DNA of 8,037 nt. Source: an uncultured Pleurocapsa sp. GTDB lineage: Bacteria; Cyanobacteriota; Cyanobacteriia; Cyanobacteriales; Xenococcaceae. Position numbers and translations under genes: made by a program. Of the stretch, positions 895-8,037 are shown piece by piece. Positions within the stretch are counted from its first letter, which is position 1. The number at the start of each line of letters is the position of its first letter. The stretch is from NCBI GenBank assembly GCA_937884735.1, contig CAKZYI010000074.1, forward strand, positions 1 through 8,037. The letters are read 5' to 3'. The notes below the pieces were generated by a model, which worked only from the letters and a program-made list of their open reading frames with translations, did no database searches and was not told where the DNA came from.

Positions 895-1347
895 ATGGAA
901 CCAATTACAATAACTACAGTCGCTATTGCAATGTCGACAATTTTTTCTGTTAAAGCTTCTGAAAAAACTGGCGAAAAATTTGGAGAATTCTTATCAGATC
1001 TAGTTTCAAAATCAGCTCTAAAACTAAGTAAAAAATCAACTCTAATTAAAAACTTATTACAAGCGGAAGAAGCAGAACCCCTTCAAATAAGCGGAGCAAT
1101 TCTAGAAGTAAAACAAATTGCCGATCGCGATCCAGAAATAGCAAAAACTATTTCAGAGATAAATACAAAAGCCAAACAAGAGCCTAATTCTCAGTTTCAA
1201 TCTAAAATTAATCAAGTTAGGTTAGAAGCAGATAAGTTAGATAATCAACAACCAGCAATTCAAAATCTAACAGAGTTAGCCAACAAAATTGGAGTTGTCA
1301 ATCAAGCTACAACTATAAATCAAACGATTAACCAAAACATATTTTGA
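895..1347 (+). CDS. Hypothetical 150-aa helical protein with an N-terminal hydrophobic helix and a Q/N-rich C-terminal tail; candidate Bell/HeLo-like effector module of the downstream NLR
   Basis: ATG 895 to TGA 1345-1347. Residues 3-19, PITITTVAIAMSTIFSV (901-951), are hydrophobic. The middle is K/E/Q-rich and helix-like. The tail is ELANKIGVVNQATTINQTINQNIF (1273-1344). It shares frame 1 with the NB-ARC ORF. The functional call is by architecture only. Confidence 0.6.
   Translation: MEPITITTVAIAMSTIFSVKASEKTGEKFGEFLSDLVSKSALKLSKKSTLIKNLLQAEEAEPLQISGAILEVKQIADRDPEIAKTISEINTKAKQEPNSQFQSKINQVRLEADKLDNQQPAIQNLTELANKIGVVNQATTINQTINQNIF
1345..1347 (+). other. Single in-frame TGA separating the 150-aa ORF from the NB-ARC/TPR reading frame
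   Basis: 895, 1345 and 1495 all fall in frame 1 (each is 1 mod 3). TGA 1345-1347 is followed by C (TGA-C). The 49 codons 1348-1494 contain no stop and no ATG, GTG or TTG. Confidence 0.9.
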
Positions 1348-3783
1348 CAGAATTCGTCTGAAGGGAAACAGACAAAGTTTAATCCCAAAAAATTTACTTC
1401 TGAACGTGGCTCTAGTAATTTCGTTGGTCGGGAAACGGAATTACAAAACCTACACAAACACTTACAAGAAGGAAATAGTATTTCTATAGTAGGAATGGGA
1501 GGAGTTGGAAAAACAGAATTAGCTACTCAATATGCTATTAAGTACAAATCCTATTACGATGCAATTCTTCGGTTTAATTTTACTTCTAATGACTTGTTCA
1601 CGCAGGTACTAAGATTTTTCAAATTCACTCTTGGGTATCAAGTTCCTCAAAAAACAAGAGAAGGAATATTAAATGAAGAGCAACAAGTTAAGCATTGTTG
1701 GGATAATTATCCTAATCTAGATTTACCAGTTTTAGTTATTTTTGATAATGTAGATGATGCAGAAAAGTTAAGAAAAATTATTCCTAACGATCAACAGTTT
1801 CGATGTGTTGTTACTACTCAAAAGACAAGATTAGACAGCAAACTTATTATAGATATTCCAATAAATATTCTTTCATTAAAAGAAGCAGTAACTTTTTTAC
1901 AATTACTATTAGGTGCAACCGATAAACGTATATCCAGTGAGCGAACAAAAGCAGAAAGCATTTGTAATTTTCTCGAATGTTTACCTTTAGCGATTGAGCT
2001 AGTTGGGGGATATTTAGCAGGAGATCCCTATCTATGTCTTGGCGATATGATGGAAAAATTAGAAAAAGAAAAATTAAACCATACAGCCTTCATCGATAAA
2101 GATAAACTTACTATAGGTGTCCGAGTTGCTTTTTCTTTAACCTGGTCTAAACTAAGCTCTAATGCAAAACAGCTTGGAAAATTAATTAGCTTATTTCCAG
2201 CAAAGAAAATTCATTGGGACTATGTTCAGCTTGTAATAGAATTCCCAACTAAAGAAGAAGAAGAACTTCCTATATGGGATAATAAATGTATAGATGAAGG
2301 GAAACGAGAATTACATAGAAGAAATATTATTGTTATTCAACAAGATAGTATAGAAAGCTATTATCAGGTTCATTCTTTACTAAGATATTATTTGCAAGAA
2401 CAATTAACAGAAGAAAATGAAACAAATTTAATTTTAATCAGTATCTTTGTAAGGTTTATAGAATATAATTCTAATGCTATGAAGCTAAAAATGCTTCATA
2501 CAAAAAAAACATATTTAAAAGAAATAGCTTTTTATATGGAGAACATAGCACAAGAATTATTATTTGAAATCAATCAAAATAATGAGACTGGAGTAATTTA
2601 TTTAAACAGAATTAAAAACGATCAAATAATTTCAATATTTTTAGGAATAGGCTCATTTTATTTAGTAGAAGGATTATATGAATCAGCAGAATTATGGCTA
2701 GATAGATCCATTAATGCTTGCAAGCTTCTATCTTTAGAAAATAAGGTAAGTATGATACATAGCCTAAATGCTTTAGCTATGCTTTATGTTAATCAAGGAA
2801 AATATTCTGAAGCAGAATCGCTTTTTGATAAGCTTTTTACCATTGCAAAAACTTTTCCTCCTGAAGAAGATTTAAATATAGATACGTGTTGGGATAATCT
2901 GGCTTTACTTTATCAATATCAAGGAAGAGAAAAAGAAGCTGGAAGTTTGCTTTCAAAGTCTTTAGGAACGGTGCAAGATATTGAAGTAGCAGATAGTCCT
3001 ATTCTAGCGAGAAGAAAAAACAATTTAGCACATTACTATATGACTATAGGAAAGTACGAAGAAGCTTTACCCCTATTTATCGAGTCATTGGAAATGAGAC
3101 AACGATTATTTAAAGGAGAAGATCATCCTGATATTGCGATTAGTCTAGATAATTTAGGTTTGCTTTACTATTATCTAAGAAAACCAGAGCAAGCTGAACC
3201 TATTTCTTATCAAGCCTTAGAAATGAGAAAAAGACTGTTTGATAAAAATCATCCTGATATTGCCAGAAGCTCACATAACTTAGGTTTAATCTATTCTTAT
3301 CTAAGAAAACCAGAACAAGCCAAACCTTTGTTTATCAAGTCATTACAAATAAACAAAGCTAATTTTGGAGAAGCTCATCCTGATATTGCAACTTCTATGG
3401 ATAGTTTAAGTAACATATATAAATTTCAGGGAAACTGGAAAGAAGCTGAATATCTTTGTTCAAAGTCATTGGAAATGAGACAGCGATTATTCAAGGAAGA
3501 TCACCCTAGCAAAGCTAGAAACTTGATGAATTTAGCTTTGCTATATGAACTAATATGGGGTCTGGAAGAAGCTTATTTCTATATTGAACAGGCTTTAGAA
3601 ATGGCAGATAGAATTCTTGAAGCCAATGATCCTTTAAAAGCGGATATTCAAAATAATTTCACACGTTTAAGTAAAAAGCTTGCCTTTTTTCCATTAAGAA
3701 AGCGAAGATTTTTATTAATAATAATATTAGTCTTGATAATAGTATTATTATCTTTTTCATTTAAAAAATTGTTAGTTAATTGA
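1348..3783 (+). CDS. NB-ARC + TPR STAND NTPase (bacterial NLR-like / Avs-like sensor) with a C-terminal TM tail. It has no start codon of its own upstream of the P-loop and may be a pseudogene or a recoded continuation of 895-1344
   Basis: FVGRETEL lies at 1420-1443. The P-loop G-MGGVGKT is at 1492-1515, and the ORF-track Met 1495 sits inside it. Walker B VLVIFDNVDD is at 1729-1758. The GLPLA-type motif CLPLAIELVGGYL starts at ~1978 (LPLAI = 1981-1995). The MHD-like VHSLLRYYL has its His at 2371-2373. About 7 kinesin-light-chain-type 42-aa TPR units follow. Stop is TGA 3781-3783. Confidence 0.85.
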   Translation, partial: QNSSEGKQTKFNPKKFTSERGSSNFVGRETELQNLHKHLQEGNSISIVGMGGVGKTELATQYAIKYKSYYDAILRFNFTSNDLFTQVLRFFKFTLGYQVPQKTREGILNEEQQVKHCWDNYPNLDLPVLVIFDNVDDAEKLRKIIPNDQQFRCVVTTQKTRLDSKLIIDIPINILSLKEAVTFLQLLLGATDKRISSERTKAESICNFLECLPLAIELVGGYLAGDPYLCLGDMMEKLEKEKLNHTAFIDKDKLTIGVRVAFSLTWSKLSSNAKQLGKLISLFPAKKIHWDYVQLVIEFPTKEEEELPIWDNKCIDEGKRELHRRNIIVIQQDSIESYYQVHSLLRYYLQEQLTEENETNLILISIFVRFIEYNSNAMKLKMLHTKKTYLKEIAFYMENIAQELLFEINQNNETGVIYLNRIKNDQIISIFLGIGSFYLVEGLYESAELWLDRSINACKLLSLENKVSMIHSLNALAMLYVNQGKYSEAESLFDKLFTIAKTFPPEEDLNIDTCWDNLALLYQYQGREKEAGSLLSKSLGTVQDIEVADSPILARRKNNLAHYYMTIGKYEEALPLFIESLEMRQRLFKGEDHPDIAISLDNLGLLYYYLRKPEQAEPISYQALEMRKRLFDKNHPDIARSSHNLGLIYSYLRKPEQAKPLFIKSLQINKANFGEAHPDIATSMDSLSNIYKFQGNWKEAEYLCSKSLEMRQRLFKEDHPSKARNLMNLALLYELIWGLEEAYFYIEQALEMADRILEANDPLKADIQNNFTRLSKKLAFFPLRKRRFLLIIILVLIIVLLSFSFKKLLVN
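2740..3630 (+). repeat. Tandem 42-aa (126-bp) TPR units inside the NLR gene
   Basis: The (D/N/A)HPDIA box recurs at 3121, 3247, 3373 and 3499, exactly 126 nt apart. TTATCTAAGAAAACCAGAGCAAGCTGAACCT (3171-3201) matches 3297-3327 at 28/31 nt. GTCATTGGAAATGAGACA is identical at 3084 and 3465. Confidence 0.85.
3709..3762 (+). other. Predicted C-terminal transmembrane tail anchor of the NLR-like protein
   Basis: RKRR (3697-3708) precedes FLLIIILVLIIVLLSFSF (3709-3762), followed by KKLLVN and the stop. This is a basic flank plus 18 uninterrupted hydrophobic residues. Confidence 0.55.
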
Positions 3784-3834
3784 ATTATTTTATAAATAAA
3801 GAACAATGATATAAATACATTAAGAAATTGAGTC

Positions 3835-3926: not shown

Positions 3927-4691
3927 CTACAGGCTTGAGATTTTGCACTCCAAAAGCTTCCTCTCCCCATTGAAGACCCTGAGTGGGTTTTTGCGCTCTG
4001 ATTTCTTCGTACCCGCTTTCATTCGATGTGCTGAATCTACAACCTGTTGGCTAAATCTGCCCGATTGTTTGAATTGAGCTACCATACTCAGGGCATCTGC
4101 GTTGTCTATAATCTCGGAAACTGCATTATCCACAACGCCTTGAACGAACTGCTGTGCTGCCTGACCAACGACTTGGTTAAACCCCTGCTGCATTGCTAAA
4201 TCTTCTTCTGGTGTGGGCGTTGTTGGTTGAGGTGAACGAGCATCTTGATGGGGTGGTTTAAATCTAGAATCAGTATTGGCTGAAGAACCTTGGGAATTGC
4301 CAGTGTAGGGAGTAATTGAGCCAGAATCTTGTTGATTGGTCTTGGCTTGAGCCACTTCTGCTTCAATCTCTTTGAGGCTCATTCCGTCATCAAATTTCTC
4401 GCGCCAATAGTCCAGGTATTCTATATCTAATGGGGTGTATGTCTTCTTATGCTCTGAGCCAGTAGCATTAATAAACTTGTTTAGGGAGGCTTTCTTAACG
4501 TGATATCGTCCCTCTAGTCCTTCCGCTCCTTCTTTTGGTAGTCCGTTTTCGGGAATGCTCTTCTCGGAATAGTTAGTCATGATATTTAGTTGGTTGTAAA
4601 GAATGTAGATAATGAAACTAAGCACCAGGACGTGAATTAGGGTCACATCCCGATTTAGGTAATTTGAGGTCGCACCTAATAAAAAAATCAC
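3927..4691 (-). CDS. Hypothetical protein with a MerR-like HTH/wing segment, a Q/P/S/T-rich low-complexity linker and a possible N-terminal TM helix
   Basis: GTG start at 4691 overlaps the upstream TGA by 4 nt (GTGA, 4688-4691). An alternative ATG start is at 4580 (MTNYSEK). ASLNKFINATGSEHKKTYTPLDIEYLDYWREKFDDGMSLKEI aligns by eye with the 68-aa upstream protein. VTLIHVLVLSFIIYILY is hydrophobic but present only with the GTG start. Stop is TAG 3927-3929. Confidence 0.6.
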   Translation of the reverse strand: MIFLLGATSNYLNRDVTLIHVLVLSFIIYILYNQLNIMTNYSEKSIPENGLPKEGAEGLEGRYHVKKASLNKFINATGSEHKKTYTPLDIEYLDYWREKFDDGMSLKEIEAEVAQAKTNQQDSGSITPYTGNSQGSSANTDSRFKPPHQDARSPQPTTPTPEEDLAMQQGFNQVVGQAAQQFVQGVVDNAVSEIIDNADALSMVAQFKQSGRFSQQVVDSAHRMKAGTKKSERKNPLRVFNGERKLLECKISSL

Positions 4692-4894
4692 TCAACTTTT
4701 TTAATGCGCTCCATTTGCTTGATTTGTTTTTCGGTATAACCGCCTTTTAATAAGGCTCGGTACTTACAAAATCTCTGAAATTCACTATCTGAATAGGAAC
4801 GTTTTTTGGTGGGAAGATTGGCTAATGCCAGGGTGCGGTTGACGGTGGCATAACTGATGGAGAAGGTTCTCATTAATTGGTTTTTGGTATACAT
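4688..4894 (-). CDS. Small MerR-like / excisionase-like helix-turn-helix DNA-binding protein (68 aa)
   Basis: ATG at 4894. FSISYATVNRTLALANLPTKKRSYSDSEFQRFCKYRALLKGGYTEKQIKQM follows the MerR N-terminal pattern: an HTH, then R-x-Y-x3-[DE]-h, then G-x3-[EK]-x-I. It begins 12 nt after the T4CP-like gene stop. Confidence 0.6.
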   Translation of the reverse strand: MYTKNQLMRTFSISYATVNRTLALANLPTKKRSYSDSEFQRFCKYRALLKGGYTEKQIKQMERIKKVE

Positions 4895-4906: not shown

Positions 4907-6559
4907 TTATTTACGGCGATGGGAATCGTTGTGGAGAATGTCTTCGACCATAATTTCGACGATAGTTGTGACAAAATCCCAGACACTTTCGGCAAAAGGA
5001 AACTTGGCAAAACGTTTCATGAAATTGGCTTTGGCATCGGACGAACGAAGTTTTTGCAGGAGGTCAAAGGAAAACTGCTGGGGTGAAAAACTGTTTTTTG
5101 GTCTGGTTAACTTCAAACGAGATTTTTTCTTGGTGTAGCTGGCGCGGATAAATGCTTTCCCAGTGGATTTTGGCTTGAGCTTTTCTATTTCCTCACTGGA
5201 GATGTGGCATTTGTAGATACCGCCCCAGTTGGCAATGGTTCGGGCAAAAAACTCTACCCCAAAGGATTTATCGGCTATCCTGAGCTTGAATAAGTCAGAA
5301 GTAACTAAATAGGGGCGTAATGCCTTATGACGACTGATGGAACGCCCCTGACTGGTTAGAGATAGGGAAGATTCTTGGACGTATCGCTCTCCTACCTGTT
5401 GCGTAACCCATTTGGCACTATCGCTAGAAGCAGGAGTAAAGTAGACCTGAAAGCCACAGTTACCAAGAATGGCATTAGCTTTTTCCTTGCCATAGATTTG
5501 AAACATTGCCGATACGTCTTGCAGGACAATGGATGCGCGAAATCCTTTTGAAGTCAAAAATTGCAAAGCTACATCCAGTTTTGGCAGGGGTTTCCAGACA
5601 GGTAGCTCATCTGCACTAAAGAAGATAATCTTGTCACTTCTGTCTTCTTGACTGCCGATATAGCCCACCAAAGCTTCAAAGATAAATCTGACGATGGGGC
5701 TAGTGCTGTTCATGGTTTGGAGAGAGGCACTAAAGACGGTTACTACATCTTCTTCCCCAACTATGTCTTCGTAAGAGATCCACTGACTAGGTGGGGTATT
5801 ACGCTGGAGTTCGGCACAGGCTCGTAATTGGGAGACTGACGTATTTAACTGTGTCAGGATGCCAAATTTAGTATTAGCTCCCCCTTCATCTCCCAGCAGT
5901 TTGTCGGCTATTTCTTTGCTGGCGGGACATAGGGATAGGTATTCGATTAAATCTCCGATAGGTAGGGAACTGATATCAACAAAGTCATGGATGCCCCAGG
6001 TATTATCTTTGAGGTAAATCAGACATTGAATAATGGAGATCGCAACCTCCTGGGCAGACAACGCCCAGAATGGCTCTCCCTTATCGGGTACAGGAACAAT
6101 GATTGCTACCAGAGCTTTTATTAGCAGGGGATTGCCATCAACCATTCTGCCTACGTCAATCGCACCACTGCGAGCATCTTCTAGTTTGATAATATTGAGC
6201 TTAATTCCGCATTCATCGCAGAGAGGTTCAACCCAAGACAATAAGTCGCCTTTAGCATCGAGCAGAATCAGATTCTTGATATAGTCTGTATCAACCTTAA
6301 TTAATGACTGAAGAAATTGATTGTACATTAGGCTCTTACCAGACCTAGTTATGCCGAGCCACAACTGGTGAGAGCGGAGTTGTCTGAGGTCGAGCATTTT
6401 GCCGATTAACGAAACTACATTACGGTCGTTTCGTGGTGGTTCATCGCCCAAATGCGGTTGGCGATATTTAGCCTCTTTTTTGGCTTGGCTGCGCTGTTTT
6501 CTGCTCTTTCTGCGCTGTTCTAATTTATGAAATTTTGGTTTGCCAAATCCTTTGAACAT
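4907..6559 (-). CDS. T4CP-like (TraG/VirD4/TraD-family) P-loop ATPase with a basic N-terminus and no TM anchor
   Basis: Walker A GITRSGKS is at 6355-6332 and Walker B IIFFSADELPVW at 5629-5594. Next come SIVLQDVSAMFQIYGKEKANAILGNCGFQVYF (Q-x5-Q-x-YG box) and TPASSDSAKWVTQQVG. The first ~65 aa are K/R-rich (KPKFHKLEQRRKSRKQRSQAKKEAKYRQ) and contain no hydrophobic segment. Confidence 0.75.
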   Translation of the reverse strand: MFKGFGKPKFHKLEQRRKSRKQRSQAKKEAKYRQPHLGDEPPRNDRNVVSLIGKMLDLRQLRSHQLWLGITRSGKSLMYNQFLQSLIKVDTDYIKNLILLDAKGDLLSWVEPLCDECGIKLNIIKLEDARSGAIDVGRMVDGNPLLIKALVAIIVPVPDKGEPFWALSAQEVAISIIQCLIYLKDNTWGIHDFVDISSLPIGDLIEYLSLCPASKEIADKLLGDEGGANTKFGILTQLNTSVSQLRACAELQRNTPPSQWISYEDIVGEEDVVTVFSASLQTMNSTSPIVRFIFEALVGYIGSQEDRSDKIIFFSADELPVWKPLPKLDVALQFLTSKGFRASIVLQDVSAMFQIYGKEKANAILGNCGFQVYFTPASSDSAKWVTQQVGERYVQESSLSLTSQGRSISRHKALRPYLVTSDLFKLRIADKSFGVEFFARTIANWGGIYKCHISSEEIEKLKPKSTGKAFIRASYTKKKSRLKLTRPKNSFSPQQFSFDLLQKLRSSDAKANFMKRFAKFPFAESVWDFVTTIVEIMVEDILHNDSHRRK

Positions 6560-6614: not shown

Positions 6615-7904
6615 CTAAGAATCTTTATTGAAGTCACCTAGATCGGTTATGCTGCCGTCAAGAGAGCGATTGATACTCGCAATTTCTGCCTTAAAATCGT
6701 TGATTTCTGATTCGGCAAGGCTTTGTTCTTCATTGAGATTCAAAACTAAGCGTTTGAACTGAACGCTGTCATCGCTATAAGAGCCTTTCTGTCTGATTTT
6801 CAGTAGATTTTCGCGGATGAAGGAAATCAGGAATTTACGATTTACGATTTTGGTAGCGAGTAAGTCTTTTTTGAGTTTGAGTACCTTGAGCTTGGTGGAG
6901 GGAAAAGGGATGCGCTCCGATCGACGAATCTTGAGATTTTCCGCTTCTTCCTCAGCTTCAATCCGTTCTTTTTCTGCTTTAAATGTTTCTAAGAAAGCAT
7001 CGGATATTTCTTGAGAATCCCTGGCTGCGGTCATCTCTCGATAAGCCTGTTCGGTAATGGATGTACCCCTGTAGGCTTCTCGACCTGTGAGTTCGTCTAG
7101 AAAACCATTAATTGCCTCAATTTTTGCCCTTAGTCGGGGAATATCGATGCTATCGAGGATTTCTTGGTACTTTTGGCAGATTTTTTCACTGGCTTCATCT
7201 TTACCAACCATTGAAAAACGCAGATAGCCGATAGTTATGGGCATGGCGAAGACCAAAGCACTTAGGGCAATGGAGATAGCAGTTTCGCCACTGTTAAGGA
7301 CGTTAACCATCACTACCTCAGATATCAGTACCCCAATACCAGACATTATCGCGATCTTAACTGTCTTATTAAGCCGATAGTCTGCGTGGACTTTATTAAC
7401 AGTTTTGATGAACCCCTCAAGTTGAGACACTGTGAGAGGGCTGGTAACTTCTGGAGGGTCTAGTTCGGAACGTCCTCCTGCTGCTTCTACCTTTTCAGAC
7501 TCTAAATCCTTGATCTTTAAACGATAATCTTGGGAAAAGTGAACGATAGTGAGAATTTTGCTAATGCAGTACTCGATTATAAATACCAGAACAAAGGCGA
7601 TTCCTACTATCACAATTAGGTTGTCTTGACCTTCTTTGGTAGCTTGGCTTTGGACGATTTTGGTATTGAAAATCGCTGCCACTGCCGTTGCGACGATGAG
7701 AATTATTTCACTGAGAGCATTTATCTTGGCATAGTAGGCAGGAATACCTTCGATACAAGCATCGGCTCGTCCTTTTTCCTTGGCAAGACTCATCACCTGG
7801 GGTTTGACCTGGATCAGTTCAAACTGGGATTGGGAAGCGATGTTTCTGGCATCAATATCGGGTATCGCGACAGTTGTTTTGGTTCTTTTATTTCTTCTAC
7901 TCAT
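6615..7904 (-). CDS. Hypothetical membrane protein: two 2-TM hairpins followed by a long coiled-coil-like C-terminal region
   Basis: Hydrophobic segments are LSEIILIVATAVAAIF, LIVIVGIAFVLVFIIEYCI, IAIMSGIGVLISEVVMVNVL and AISIALSALVFAMPITIGYL. The C-terminal ~190 aa are E/K/R/L-rich. The ATG at 7904 is preferred: the ORF-track start 7940 is a TTG, and the ATG overlaps the stop of an upstream open frame (ATGAGTAG). Confidence 0.65.
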   Translation of the reverse strand: MSRRNKRTKTTVAIPDIDARNIASQSQFELIQVKPQVMSLAKEKGRADACIEGIPAYYAKINALSEIILIVATAVAAIFNTKIVQSQATKEGQDNLIVIVGIAFVLVFIIEYCISKILTIVHFSQDYRLKIKDLESEKVEAAGGRSELDPPEVTSPLTVSQLEGFIKTVNKVHADYRLNKTVKIAIMSGIGVLISEVVMVNVLNSGETAISIALSALVFAMPITIGYLRFSMVGKDEASEKICQKYQEILDSIDIPRLRAKIEAINGFLDELTGREAYRGTSITEQAYREMTAARDSQEISDAFLETFKAEKERIEAEEEAENLKIRRSERIPFPSTKLKVLKLKKDLLATKIVNRKFLISFIRENLLKIRQKGSYSDDSVQFKRLVLNLNEEQSLAESEINDFKAEIASINRSLDGSITDLGDFNKDS

Positions 7905-8037
7905 GATTTTGGGTGGTAGTGGTGTTTTGAGGTGTTTCAATTACGTGGCGATCTCGAATTCTGTCGATTTCATCAAACACGGCGGTAGCTCTGGAAGTGA
8001 AGAAGAAATCGTACTGGGAGAGGGTAGCGTTTAACTT
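7897..8037 (-). CDS. Possible 3' end of an upstream operon gene (partial, hypothetical)
   Basis: The minus-strand frame is open from the window edge to TAG 7899-7897: ...KLNATLSQYDFFFTSRATAVFDEIDRIRDRHVIETPQNTTTTQNHE*. It overlaps ATG 7904 of the next gene by 8 nt, which is typical operon coupling. It is absent from the ORF track because it has no Met. Confidence 0.3.
   Translation of the reverse strand, partial: KLNATLSQYDFFFTSRATAVFDEIDRIRDRHVIETPQNTTTTQNHE

Follow-up and report, generated by a model that had tools for sequence, protein, structure and literature searches.

The 8,037-nt stretch of DNA analysed here (the window; contig CAKZYI010000074.1 of assembly GCA_937884735.1, from an uncultured Pleurocapsa sp.) contains a small open reading frame (ORF) followed on the same strand by an NB-ARC/TPR gene of the nucleotide-binding oligomerisation domain (NOD)-like receptor (NLR) type. 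All positions are given in the forward-strand numbering of the window. An earlier note on this DNA had singled out the C-terminal tail of the small protein as a candidate bacterial amyloid signalling sequence (BASS), present as one copy that serves both the small effector and the NLR. In our analysis, the stop codon behind this tail emerged as the more important finding, as it is a conserved candidate site of programmed read-through. The features of the locus are as follows, with the basis of each assignment in brackets.

895..3783, + strand: whole candidate recoded gene, comprising a Bell-like domain, motif, UGA, linker, NB-ARC, TPR and a C-terminal transmembrane (TM) helix (one frame, single internal stop)
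895..1347, + strand: short product of 150 aa, an all-helical Bell-like domain plus C-terminal motif, with UGA as stop (translation, homologues, AlphaFold2, hhalign)
1273..1344, + strand: tail ELANKIGVVNQATTINQTINQNIF, a BASS5-like NLR-associated motif in single copy (translation, conservation, paired use in relatives, BASS5 comparison)
1345..1348, + strand: in-frame UGA with C at +4, the proposed read-through site (TGA in all distinct junction sequences, see below)
1348..1419, + strand: linker of 24 codons from the UGA to FVGRE, QNSSEGKQTKFNPKKFTSERGSSN (no start codon, synonymous rate halved)
1356..1373, + strand: hairpin S1, with GUCUG at 1356-1360, loop AAGGGAAA at 1361-1368 and CAGAC at 1369-1373, 8 nt after the UGA (covariation, covariance model)
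1383..1386, + strand: UCCC, complementary to GGGA in the loop (1363-1366), possible second stem S2 of an H-type pseudoknot (per-sequence complementarity)
1432..2019, + strand: NB-ARC nucleotide-binding domain (PF00931, 42.8 bits against a cut-off of 23.5, E 4.9e-11)
1492-1515, + strand: Walker A motif GMGGVGKT (sequence)
2677..3486, + strand: TPR repeat (sensor) region (TPR_12, E 1.5e-55; TPR_10, E 1e-52)
3709..3762, + strand: predicted C-terminal hydrophobic TM-like helix FLLIIILVLIIVLLSFSF (sequence)

The in-frame UGA and the downstream RNA element

The small ORF, whose translation ends in NLTELANKIGVVNQATTINQTINQNIF before the TGA at 1345-1347, and the NB-ARC/TPR ORF (called at 1495..3783) share one frame, in which 811 sense codons follow this TGA up to a second TGA at 3781-3783. 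The statement in the earlier note that only the stop codon separates the motif from the NLR is thus literally true, since the TGA at 1345-1347 is the sole stop within the frame. With its NB-ARC domain, Walker A motif and C-terminal repeats, the downstream part has the features by which NLR/STAND proteins are recognised (Pfam). FVGRE(TEL) begins 24 codons past the stop, at 1420, and GMGGVGKT 48 codons past it. From 1348 onwards, no in-frame ATG, GTG or TTG is found before the ATG at 1495, which encodes the methionine within Walker A; a canonical start that would leave the nucleotide-binding domain of the NLR intact is therefore impossible. The ratio of nonsynonymous to synonymous change (omega) between the window and its orthologue is ~0.25 in the N-terminal domain, ~0.1 from FVGRE to the P-loop and 0.17-0.3 in the rest of the NLR, and these low values on either side of the stop indicate purifying selection on both halves rather than a decaying pseudogene. 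Synonymous divergence is halved over the ~21 codons after the stop (pS 0.20-0.37 vs. 0.4-0.77 elsewhere, Nostocales set included), which points to a constraint at the nucleotide (RNA) level. For the linker of the window, the corresponding pS values are 0.32-0.37 vs. 0.6-0.77.

The arrangement is widespread in cyanobacteria. TGA occupies the same codon in 8/8 close homologues and the NLR follows in frame in all seven with enough downstream sequence, with the post-stop segment FVGRETEL...GMGGVGKT conserved (compare KDSSGSERTKLSPSKCISYRGSVHFVGRETEL and QNSSEGKQTKFNPKKFTSERGSSNFVGRETEL, each directly after the stop). A genome scan limited to a single genome for each species yielded 61 loci from cyanobacteria, 48 of which have the single-copy layout with an in-frame TGA. 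Their hosts (Nostoc, Anabaena, Halotia, Calothrix, Tolypothrix, Scytonema, Hassallia, Laspinema, Phormidium, a Coleofasciculaceae metagenome-assembled genome, and Xenococcus) span the Nostocales, Oscillatoriales, Pleurocapsales, and Coleofasciculaceae, and in most of these loci 600-1261 codons without a further stop follow the TGA in frame and extend into a domain of the NACHT (GEPGAGKT) or NB-ARC type. Four further loci picked for other tail variants are arranged in the same way, and a narrow metagenome pattern scan in which the stop was left as NNN gave one match, again with TGA. The layout with one shared motif copy, of which the earlier note knew no description, is thus real and recurs in >50 loci across several orders of cyanobacteria. 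In 51/51 distinct junction sequences TGA is the stop, and the base that follows it (+4) is C in most of them, A or G in a few and never U, the context being UGA-CUA in Nostocales and UGA-C in the window. In contrast, the two-copy loci (12-13 of the 61; Leptolyngbyaceae, Phormidesmidales, Nodosilinea, Stenomitos, and Snowella), in which the NLR has its own ATG or GTG and a second motif, use TAG (n = 8), TAA (n = 4), and TGA (n = 1), with the two genes in any frame.

Further properties of the junction concern the frame and the possible starts within it. All indels in the junction alignment are multiples of three, and the first in-frame canonical start after the UGA has no conserved position (codon 0, 22-50, 63, 75, 109 or 137-146); in 10 of 46 single-copy loci, it lies at or past the P-loop. 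A junction-spanning profile searched against 5.8 billion proteins yielded no sense-codon variant at the UGA position among the best 120 of 132 matches, which are 93-177 aa long and cover at most 46% of the query, in its upstream half only. When a junction peptide was searched against plasmids with tblastn, the matches comprised NACHT homologues and one canonical pair of the BASS4-like kind, and none had an in-frame UGA. In a crude neighbour-joining tree, the in-frame-UGA layout is spread over several deep branches, where it is combined with NB-ARC as well as NACHT, and the two-copy layout forms one nested clade, a pattern which suggests that the putative read-through cassette is old and modular. 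Seven of the related loci (L013, L017, L021, L023, L035, L045, and L053) look decayed, either because the frame after the UGA is cut after 41-324 codons or, in L053, because an early TAG breaks the small ORF; the RNA element described below is recognisable in all of them.

Other ways of decoding the junction were considered and rejected. Reassignment of UGA is at odds with the use of TGA as terminator of the NLR and of two other ORFs in the window, where TAA and TAG are in use too. A +1 frameshift at UUU-UGA-C, as in prfB, does not fit an NLR that lies in frame 0, and in Nostocales the +1 frame ends after 12 codons and is unconserved. A slippery heptamer with a sense A-site codon, as expected for a -1 frameshift, is absent, as are conserved matching take-off and landing codons for ribosome hopping.

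Every in-frame-UGA locus has a hairpin of 5-7 bp located 8 nt past the UGA, with a stem that differs between lineages (GUCCC-N11-GGGAC or GUCUC...GAGAC in Nostoc, GCCGGA-N6-UCCGGU in Laspinema, and GUCUG-N8-CAGAC in the window). In a 22-sequence alignment, 94.7% of the cells are paired, vs. 20%-45% when the 3' partner is slid, and four of the six pairs show compensatory double changes. The covariation score of 0.606 was reached by 0/500 shuffles (0.255 +/- 0.035). A covariance model built from the UGA and the hairpin matched 58 in-frame-UGA junctions once each, four of them from loci outside the training set, and had no match elsewhere in 488 kb or at the two-copy loci. A search of Rfam with positions 1200-1550 of the window (E <= 10) gave noise only and no family match.

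In most clades, the loop sequence GGGA or GGGAG is complementary to UCCC or CUCCC 8-9 nt past the stem. This complementarity was judged sequence by sequence; column-wise covariation was dropped because differences in loop length shift the G-run between alignment columns. It extends over 4-6 bp in most clades (mean 4.5 bp vs. 3.3 bp in shuffles), is changed in a compensatory manner in L072 (AGCGGA/UCCGCU), and is extended in L063 and L075. The loop and its downstream complement are thus suggestive of an H-type pseudoknot. In Nostocales (e.g. L013, 4424-4483), the loop reads GGGGAGGAU, a near-perfect Shine-Dalgarno sequence, and overlaps an out-of-frame AUG; the resulting four-codon ORF (MGQS, then a stop) ends in a conserved GUUAAC.

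The Bell-like domain and the C-terminal motif

The small protein begins with MEPITITTVAIAMSTIFSV, that is, M-E-P followed by a hydrophobic N-terminal helix. M-E-P is kept in every close homologue (n = 8, 150-154 aa), and a profile search of 1.8 billion cluster representatives identified 169 family members, nearly all of 120-160 aa, with the consensus start MEPxTLTAxATAIATxxxTKAxEKTGEKLGE. AlphaFold2, run with 74 homologues, predicts a bundle of seven helices (predicted local distance difference test score (pLDDT) 78). Bell domains are described as short (~120-140 aa) all-helical bundles, mostly found as proteins on their own, that open with a hydrophobic helix and have their acidic residue at position 2 or 3 (bioRxiv 10.1101/2020.01.06.895854), and the small ORF encodes an acidic residue at position 2, a hydrophobic N-terminal helix, and a short all-helical bundle. 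No Pfam or NCBIfam match below E 0.06 was found for it, and P0100 (700 aa), a distant fused relative of the family, lacks the motif. Comparison with hhalign linked the family to the small protein of a plasmid-borne gene pair of Nostoc sp. C057 (97.8% probability, E 8.8e-13), which, judging from its motif and context, is probably itself of the Bell type. In this canonical Bell/NACHT pair (L076, 2002-3580, plasmid p057_H), the two genes overlap and each protein carries a BASS4-like motif; the Bell-type gene is called 'Fis family transcriptional regulator' in RefSeq, which looks like a misannotation.

The tail lies exactly where it had been placed, with 1273-1344 encoding the last 24 residues and the TGA next (translation of 895-3786), and no charge is present past K131, as previously remarked. 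Q, N, G, V, and I make up 14 of the final 20 residues (70%), with one K and neither P nor L, in agreement with the composition bias of BASS motifs, which are enriched in Q, N, G, V, and I and poor in K, P, and L. All eight close homologues (57%-62% identity) are invariant at K131, I132, G133, V134, V135, N136, Q137, Q143, I145, N146, Q147, and I149, and the C-termini of the whole family (169 cluster representatives) are variants of KLAEKIGVVNQGxIxNQTNNxNF. An alignment of homologous tails had been proposed as a check; as the tail is kept both in close homologues and across the family, it is no chance feature.

In the window, the motif forms the extreme C-terminus (last ~20 residues) of the small protein, with the NB-ARC/TPR part downstream on the same strand. 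In several relatives (L057-L062, L064-L067, L069, and L071), copies are also found on the NLR side, with N-termini such as M-TEPIAEKIGVVNQGTVYNQTNNITI... or MTEPIAEKIGVVNQGTVYNQTNNITIHEGQK...FQGRE...GEGGIGKS. Since the same motif on a Bell-type protein and the adjacent NLR is the genomic signature that defines BASS (bioRxiv 10.1101/2020.01.06.895854), these relatives are canonical amyloid-signalling pairs by that definition. The window holds neither a second motif copy nor an NLR start and represents a single-copy variant without the paired occurrence. The position of its motif, ~25 residues before FVGRE, is nevertheless the one assigned to it by the earlier note and compares with ~20 residues between the NLR-side motif of canonical pairs and FQGRE. 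The family motif resembles the BASS5 tails listed for Bell-side proteins in Table S2 of Dyrka et al. 2020 (bioRxiv 10.1101/2020.01.06.895854), which include GKLAEKIAVVAQGGTTNINTIN and KLADKIGQVVMPGGTGNIQNQ. Scored with a BASS5 hidden Markov model (HMM) that was built here from the Table S2 sequences and is not one of the authors' own profiles, and with 2000 shuffles as null, the tails of a Xenococcus orthologue (60% identical) and of Nostoc reached 19.9 and 19.5 bits, respectively (shuffle maximum 8.8 bits).

Interpretation of the stop codon

Taken together, the invariant UGA with a leaky +4 base, the 8-nt spacer and structure behind it, the frame kept on both sides, the lack of a usable start, and the absence of sense variants among the best 120 of 132 junction-profile matches constitute a comparative signature of recoding. 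Conserved-stop read-through is recognised by an in-frame stop across diverged homologues, constraint on both sides, and no independent start, all of which are found here. The nucleotide context agrees, with UGA followed by C and a conserved 3' hairpin that is specific to the in-frame-UGA layout and a putative stimulator; UGA-C and UGA-CUA contexts and an 8-nt spacer with a pseudoknot are established read-through signals (PMC7026636). Given the invariant in-frame UGA, the covarying 3' structure, and the missing NLR start, the layout would make sense only with translation through the stop. We lean, on balance, towards reading 895-3783 as one gene with two decodings, a short Bell-like effector and a long effector-motif-NLR fusion formed by UGA read-through, which would share one motif.

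In this model, most ribosomes would terminate at the UGA (1345-1347) and release a helical, Bell-like, membrane-targeting effector of 150 aa, whose last ~20 residues would be a BASS5-type NLR-associated motif of the amyloid-signalling type. A minority would pass the UGA, helped by the weak UGA-C context and the hairpin or pseudoknot 8 nt downstream, with a near-cognate tRNA probably decoding the UGA, and would yield a product of ~960 aa composed of Bell-like domain, motif, NB-ARC, TPR, and C-terminal TM helix. The sole motif copy would then sit at the C-terminus of the abundant effector and also just upstream of the NOD in the rare receptor, where its distance to F(V/Q)GRE would match that of the NLR-side motif of canonical pairs. 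Once a ligand drives the long form to oligomerise, its motifs would be clustered and could then recruit the short form through its own motif or serve as a template for it, in the manner of HET-S/NWD2 and Bab/Agp, resulting in an amplified, membrane-damaging cell-death response. We infer read-through, its efficiency, and the inserted residue, and, by analogy with HET-S/NWD2 and Bab/Agp, amyloid formation and a function in cell death or defence. For the family at large, we see an even chance that NLRs of the immune type encode both amyloid-signalling partners in one frame, with structure-stimulated UGA read-through setting the effector:receptor ratio and the cassette acting as a mobile module across NB-ARC and NACHT.

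The locus shares with BASS5 pairs (bioRxiv 10.1101/2020.01.06.895854) the small all-helical protein with M-E-P and a hydrophobic N-terminal helix, the C-terminal motif of ~20 residues, rich in Q/N/G/V/I and with the pattern KLA(E/D)KIGxVxxGG..., the NB-ARC or NACHT NLR that follows directly behind on the same strand, and cyanobacterial hosts. Unlike those pairs, the window has a single motif copy, and its NLR, which lacks both a start codon and a separate N-terminal motif, continues the frame of the small ORF past a conserved UGA that is followed by an RNA structure. The BASS screen in that preprint demanded the motif on both proteins, so that, judging from its methods, single-copy loci would go unlisted. 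In HET-S/NWD2 of Podospora and Bab/Agp of E. coli, as proposed here, a receptor motif templates the C-terminal motif of a helical pore-forming effector, with regulated cell death or abortive infection as the outcome (bioRxiv 10.1101/2024.11.07.622273). Those systems consist of two genes and two motif copies, whereas the receptor of the window would also carry the effector domain, and its stoichiometry would be set by translation instead of two promoters or ribosome-binding sites. The read-through product would have exactly the effector-NOD-repeat architecture of the all-in-one NLRs (fungal HeLo-NACHT-WD proteins and bacterial Bell-NLR fusions), but those proteins are encoded without an internal stop and, as a rule, without an amyloid motif from the effector to the NOD.

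Among known read-through genes, murine leukaemia virus gag-pol combines a stop with an 8-nt spacer and a pseudoknot (PMC7026636), which compares with the 8-nt spacer and the hairpin or possible pseudoknot of the window. The leaky UGA with C at +4 has parallels in Q-beta A1 (UGA) and in Sindbis virus and other UGA-C/UGA-CUA sites (PMC7026636). As in such viral genes, two products with a common N-terminus would be made, one short and abundant, the other rare and extended at its C-terminus. The known structured signals are viral or eukaryotic, whereas the present family consists of cyanobacterial chromosomal or plasmid genes with extensions of 800-1200 residues. In a review of the field, B. subtilis SacB is the only read-through case in a bacterial cellular gene, with phage Q-beta also listed (PMC7026636).

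Several observations weigh against the two-decoding reading, beginning with the RNA and the codons behind the stop. A pN/pS of 0.7-0.9 in the first ~21 post-stop codons gives no support for constraint on the peptide there. Stem S1 of the window is weak (5 bp, -6.1 kcal/mol) and single-sequence folding of its post-stop region gives z-scores no better than shuffles, so that the hairpin is convincing only because of the comparative data. S2 is mostly an invariant GGGA/UCCC with one clear compensatory case, and its pairing in the Xenococcus clade, the nearest relatives of the window, is limited to 2-3 bp, which is why we rate the pseudoknot as no more than suggestive. In many NACHT-type loci, translation of a truncated NLR could begin at an in-frame ATG or GTG located ~23 codons past the stop, and in two loci from Laspinema/Phormidium (L028, 1684-1695; L054, 4418-4430), GTG directly follows the UGA (AUAUGAGUG); these two might have switched to, or added, termination-reinitiation.

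On the protein side, the tail of the window scored 7.3 bits with the BASS5 HMM, below the shuffle maximum of 8.8 bits. The claim of a BASS-like motif is thus supported by the family motif, its paired use on NLRs, and its likeness to BASS5; the window copy itself is a weak match, with a score within the shuffle range. AlphaFold2 predicts residues 122-136 (IQNLTELANKIGVVN), which include half of the motif, to be helical, and residues 137-150 to be coil with a pLDDT below 50. An ordinary helix over residues 125-150, named in the earlier note as an argument against its proposal, is accordingly predicted up to residue 136 only, and the remainder is low-confidence coil. A Foldseek search against PDB (entries to April 2026) found nothing at E <= 0.001 (best E 1.1); HeLo, MLKL, and Bab are absent among the 50 PDB matches listed, of which the second-ranked, also non-significant, is the coiled-coil domain of potato Rx. 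Finally, BASS1 and BASS3 were tested experimentally and BASS5 was not among them (bioRxiv 10.1101/2020.01.06.895854), and BASS5 is the class least well captured by amyloid-motif grammars and closest to disordered-region controls (PMC8086366).

Part of these observations would be explained if read-through were real and the tail no amyloid switch, but a helix-plus-peptide interaction, a degradation tag, or a nascent peptide that promotes read-through, with the short form as inhibitor or decoy of the long NLR. The predicted helix at residues 122-136, the position of BASS5 near the disordered controls (PMC8086366) and outside the experiments of the Dyrka preprint, and the presence of an effector domain already within the long form speak for this. 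On the other hand, the composition of the tail fits the BASS bias, in canonical two-gene pairs (our relatives and Table S2) the motif occupies both of the positions that define amyloid signalling, and in the published model of HET-S, too, the motif reportedly overlaps in part with the last helix of the effector domain; we consider this explanation rather improbable. Slightly less probable, and in our view unlikely, is an arrangement of two cistrons in which termination at the UGA is invariable and the NLR arises by termination-reinitiation or by internal initiation at a non-canonical codon or a downstream AUG or GUG. The hairpin with its Shine-Dalgarno-like loop would then be a coupling or standby-site device, and the NLR would be motif-less and meet its effector otherwise. 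Such an arrangement would accommodate the Nostocales loop (GGGGAGGAU), the starts right after the TGA in L028 and L054 and ~23 codons on in many NACHT-type loci, and a pN/pS near 0.8 just past the stop, which fits an untranslated spacer; besides, the two genes of a Bell/NLR pair usually overlap or are closely coupled (Dyrka 2020, bioRxiv 10.1101/2020.01.06.895854). Evidence against it comes from the window, L001, and L004, which have no canonical start before FVGRE or Walker A, from the 10 of 46 loci with a first start at or beyond the P-loop and the unconserved start positions in general, and from the conserved FVGRETEL and, in the NACHT clade, DWRE(V/I)C, which sit upstream of any usable start. 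Moreover, the frame is held in every locus with junction indels in multiples of three, and no stop other than UGA occurs at the junction, unlike in genuinely separate pairs, where all three stops and all frames are in use. Reinitiation is conceivable for the loci with a nearby start, two of which have GTG right behind the TGA, but it fails to explain the window, the conservation of the frame, and the invariance of the UGA, and programmed read-through is favoured.

Decoding of the UGA as selenocysteine (Sec), with the hairpin as a bacterial selenocysteine insertion sequence (SECIS) bound by SelB, seems very unlikely to us. Bacterial selenoprotein genes likewise have an invariant in-frame UGA and a conserved hairpin close behind, here with a G-rich apical loop, and the published bacterial SECIS consensus misfits some known selenoprotein genes (PMC9312934). 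However, the Sec trait is reported absent from Cyanobacteria, no Cys or other sense-codon homologue spans the site (best 120 of 132 junction-profile matches), and no Rfam family matches; the UGA lies in a non-catalytic linker after a Q/N-rich tail, away from any redox site, and the hairpin loop is apparently paired downstream, seemingly in a pseudoknot. Hardly credible, finally, is the view that a nonsense mutation or a sequencing error has simply broken the frame of an all-in-one Bell-NLR gene, in which the Q/N-rich segment would be an ordinary interdomain linker. A single in-frame stop within an otherwise continuous frame is what such an event would leave, and some related loci do look decayed (post-UGA frame cut after 41-324 codons; small ORF of L053 broken). 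The same TGA nevertheless recurs at the same codon in >50 independent assemblies at about 30%-60% protein identity, with purifying selection on both halves, a covarying RNA element tied to the stop, no sense-codon relative among the best 120 of 132 junction-profile matches, and reuse of the tail segment elsewhere as an NLR N-terminal motif, and judged by these comparative sequence data the dead-gene explanation is already contradicted.

Genomic context and significance

The predicted TM-like helix at the end of the NLR would be a C-terminal membrane anchor, which is unusual for this type of protein; the orthologue L004 (about 6270-6340) has a similar hydrophobic end, FLGILLGIVILPFYLLWLLV. In Xenococcus (L001, 2582-5239), a second NB-ARC/TPR gene of 885 aa lies ~760 nt upstream of the small ORF, so that NLR genes occur there in tandem. 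The remaining genes of the window are listed below.

257-658, + strand: type IV secretion coupling-protein gene (TrwB/TraG-D), C-terminal fragment (profile positions 267-377 of 387)
3927-4691, - strand: Q/S/P-rich ORF of 254 aa without family match, in 4-nt overlap with the 68-aa ORF
4688-4894, - strand: 68-aa ORF, MerR-like helix-turn-helix (weak Pfam match, E 5e-4)
4907-6559, - strand: type IV secretion coupling-protein gene (TrwB/TraG-D), full length (E 2e-22)
6615-7940, - strand: 441-aa protein with hydrophobic segments, no significant family match

The two coupling-protein genes place the NLR in a context like that of a conjugative element; a megablast search of the whole window against the plasmids of PLSDB gave no match.

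In a full-text literature search of incomplete coverage, neither read-through nor an in-frame stop was found described for Bell/BASS/NLR systems or for cyanobacterial NLRs, and the terms 'stop codon', 'readthrough', and 'in frame' are absent from the BASS preprint (bioRxiv 10.1101/2020.01.06.895854). Gene callers turn such a locus into two genes, one for a small hypothetical protein and one for an NLR that is truncated at its N-terminus and begun at an arbitrary internal codon, and motif-pair screens that need two copies would miss them. If true, our reading would add conserved, structure-assisted programmed stop-codon read-through to the repertoire of cellular bacterial genes and make this the first gene family of bacterial cells known to carry a conserved signal for read-through with RNA structure. 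Being compact (about 40 nt), the RNA element could serve as a portable read-through tool for cyanobacteria. For the NLRs themselves, it would mean a third architecture beside 'all-in-one' and 'two-gene', in which an amyloid-signalling receptor/effector pair shares one motif with its stoichiometry fixed by translation. Such an architecture would link the other two and suggest how one may evolve into the other.

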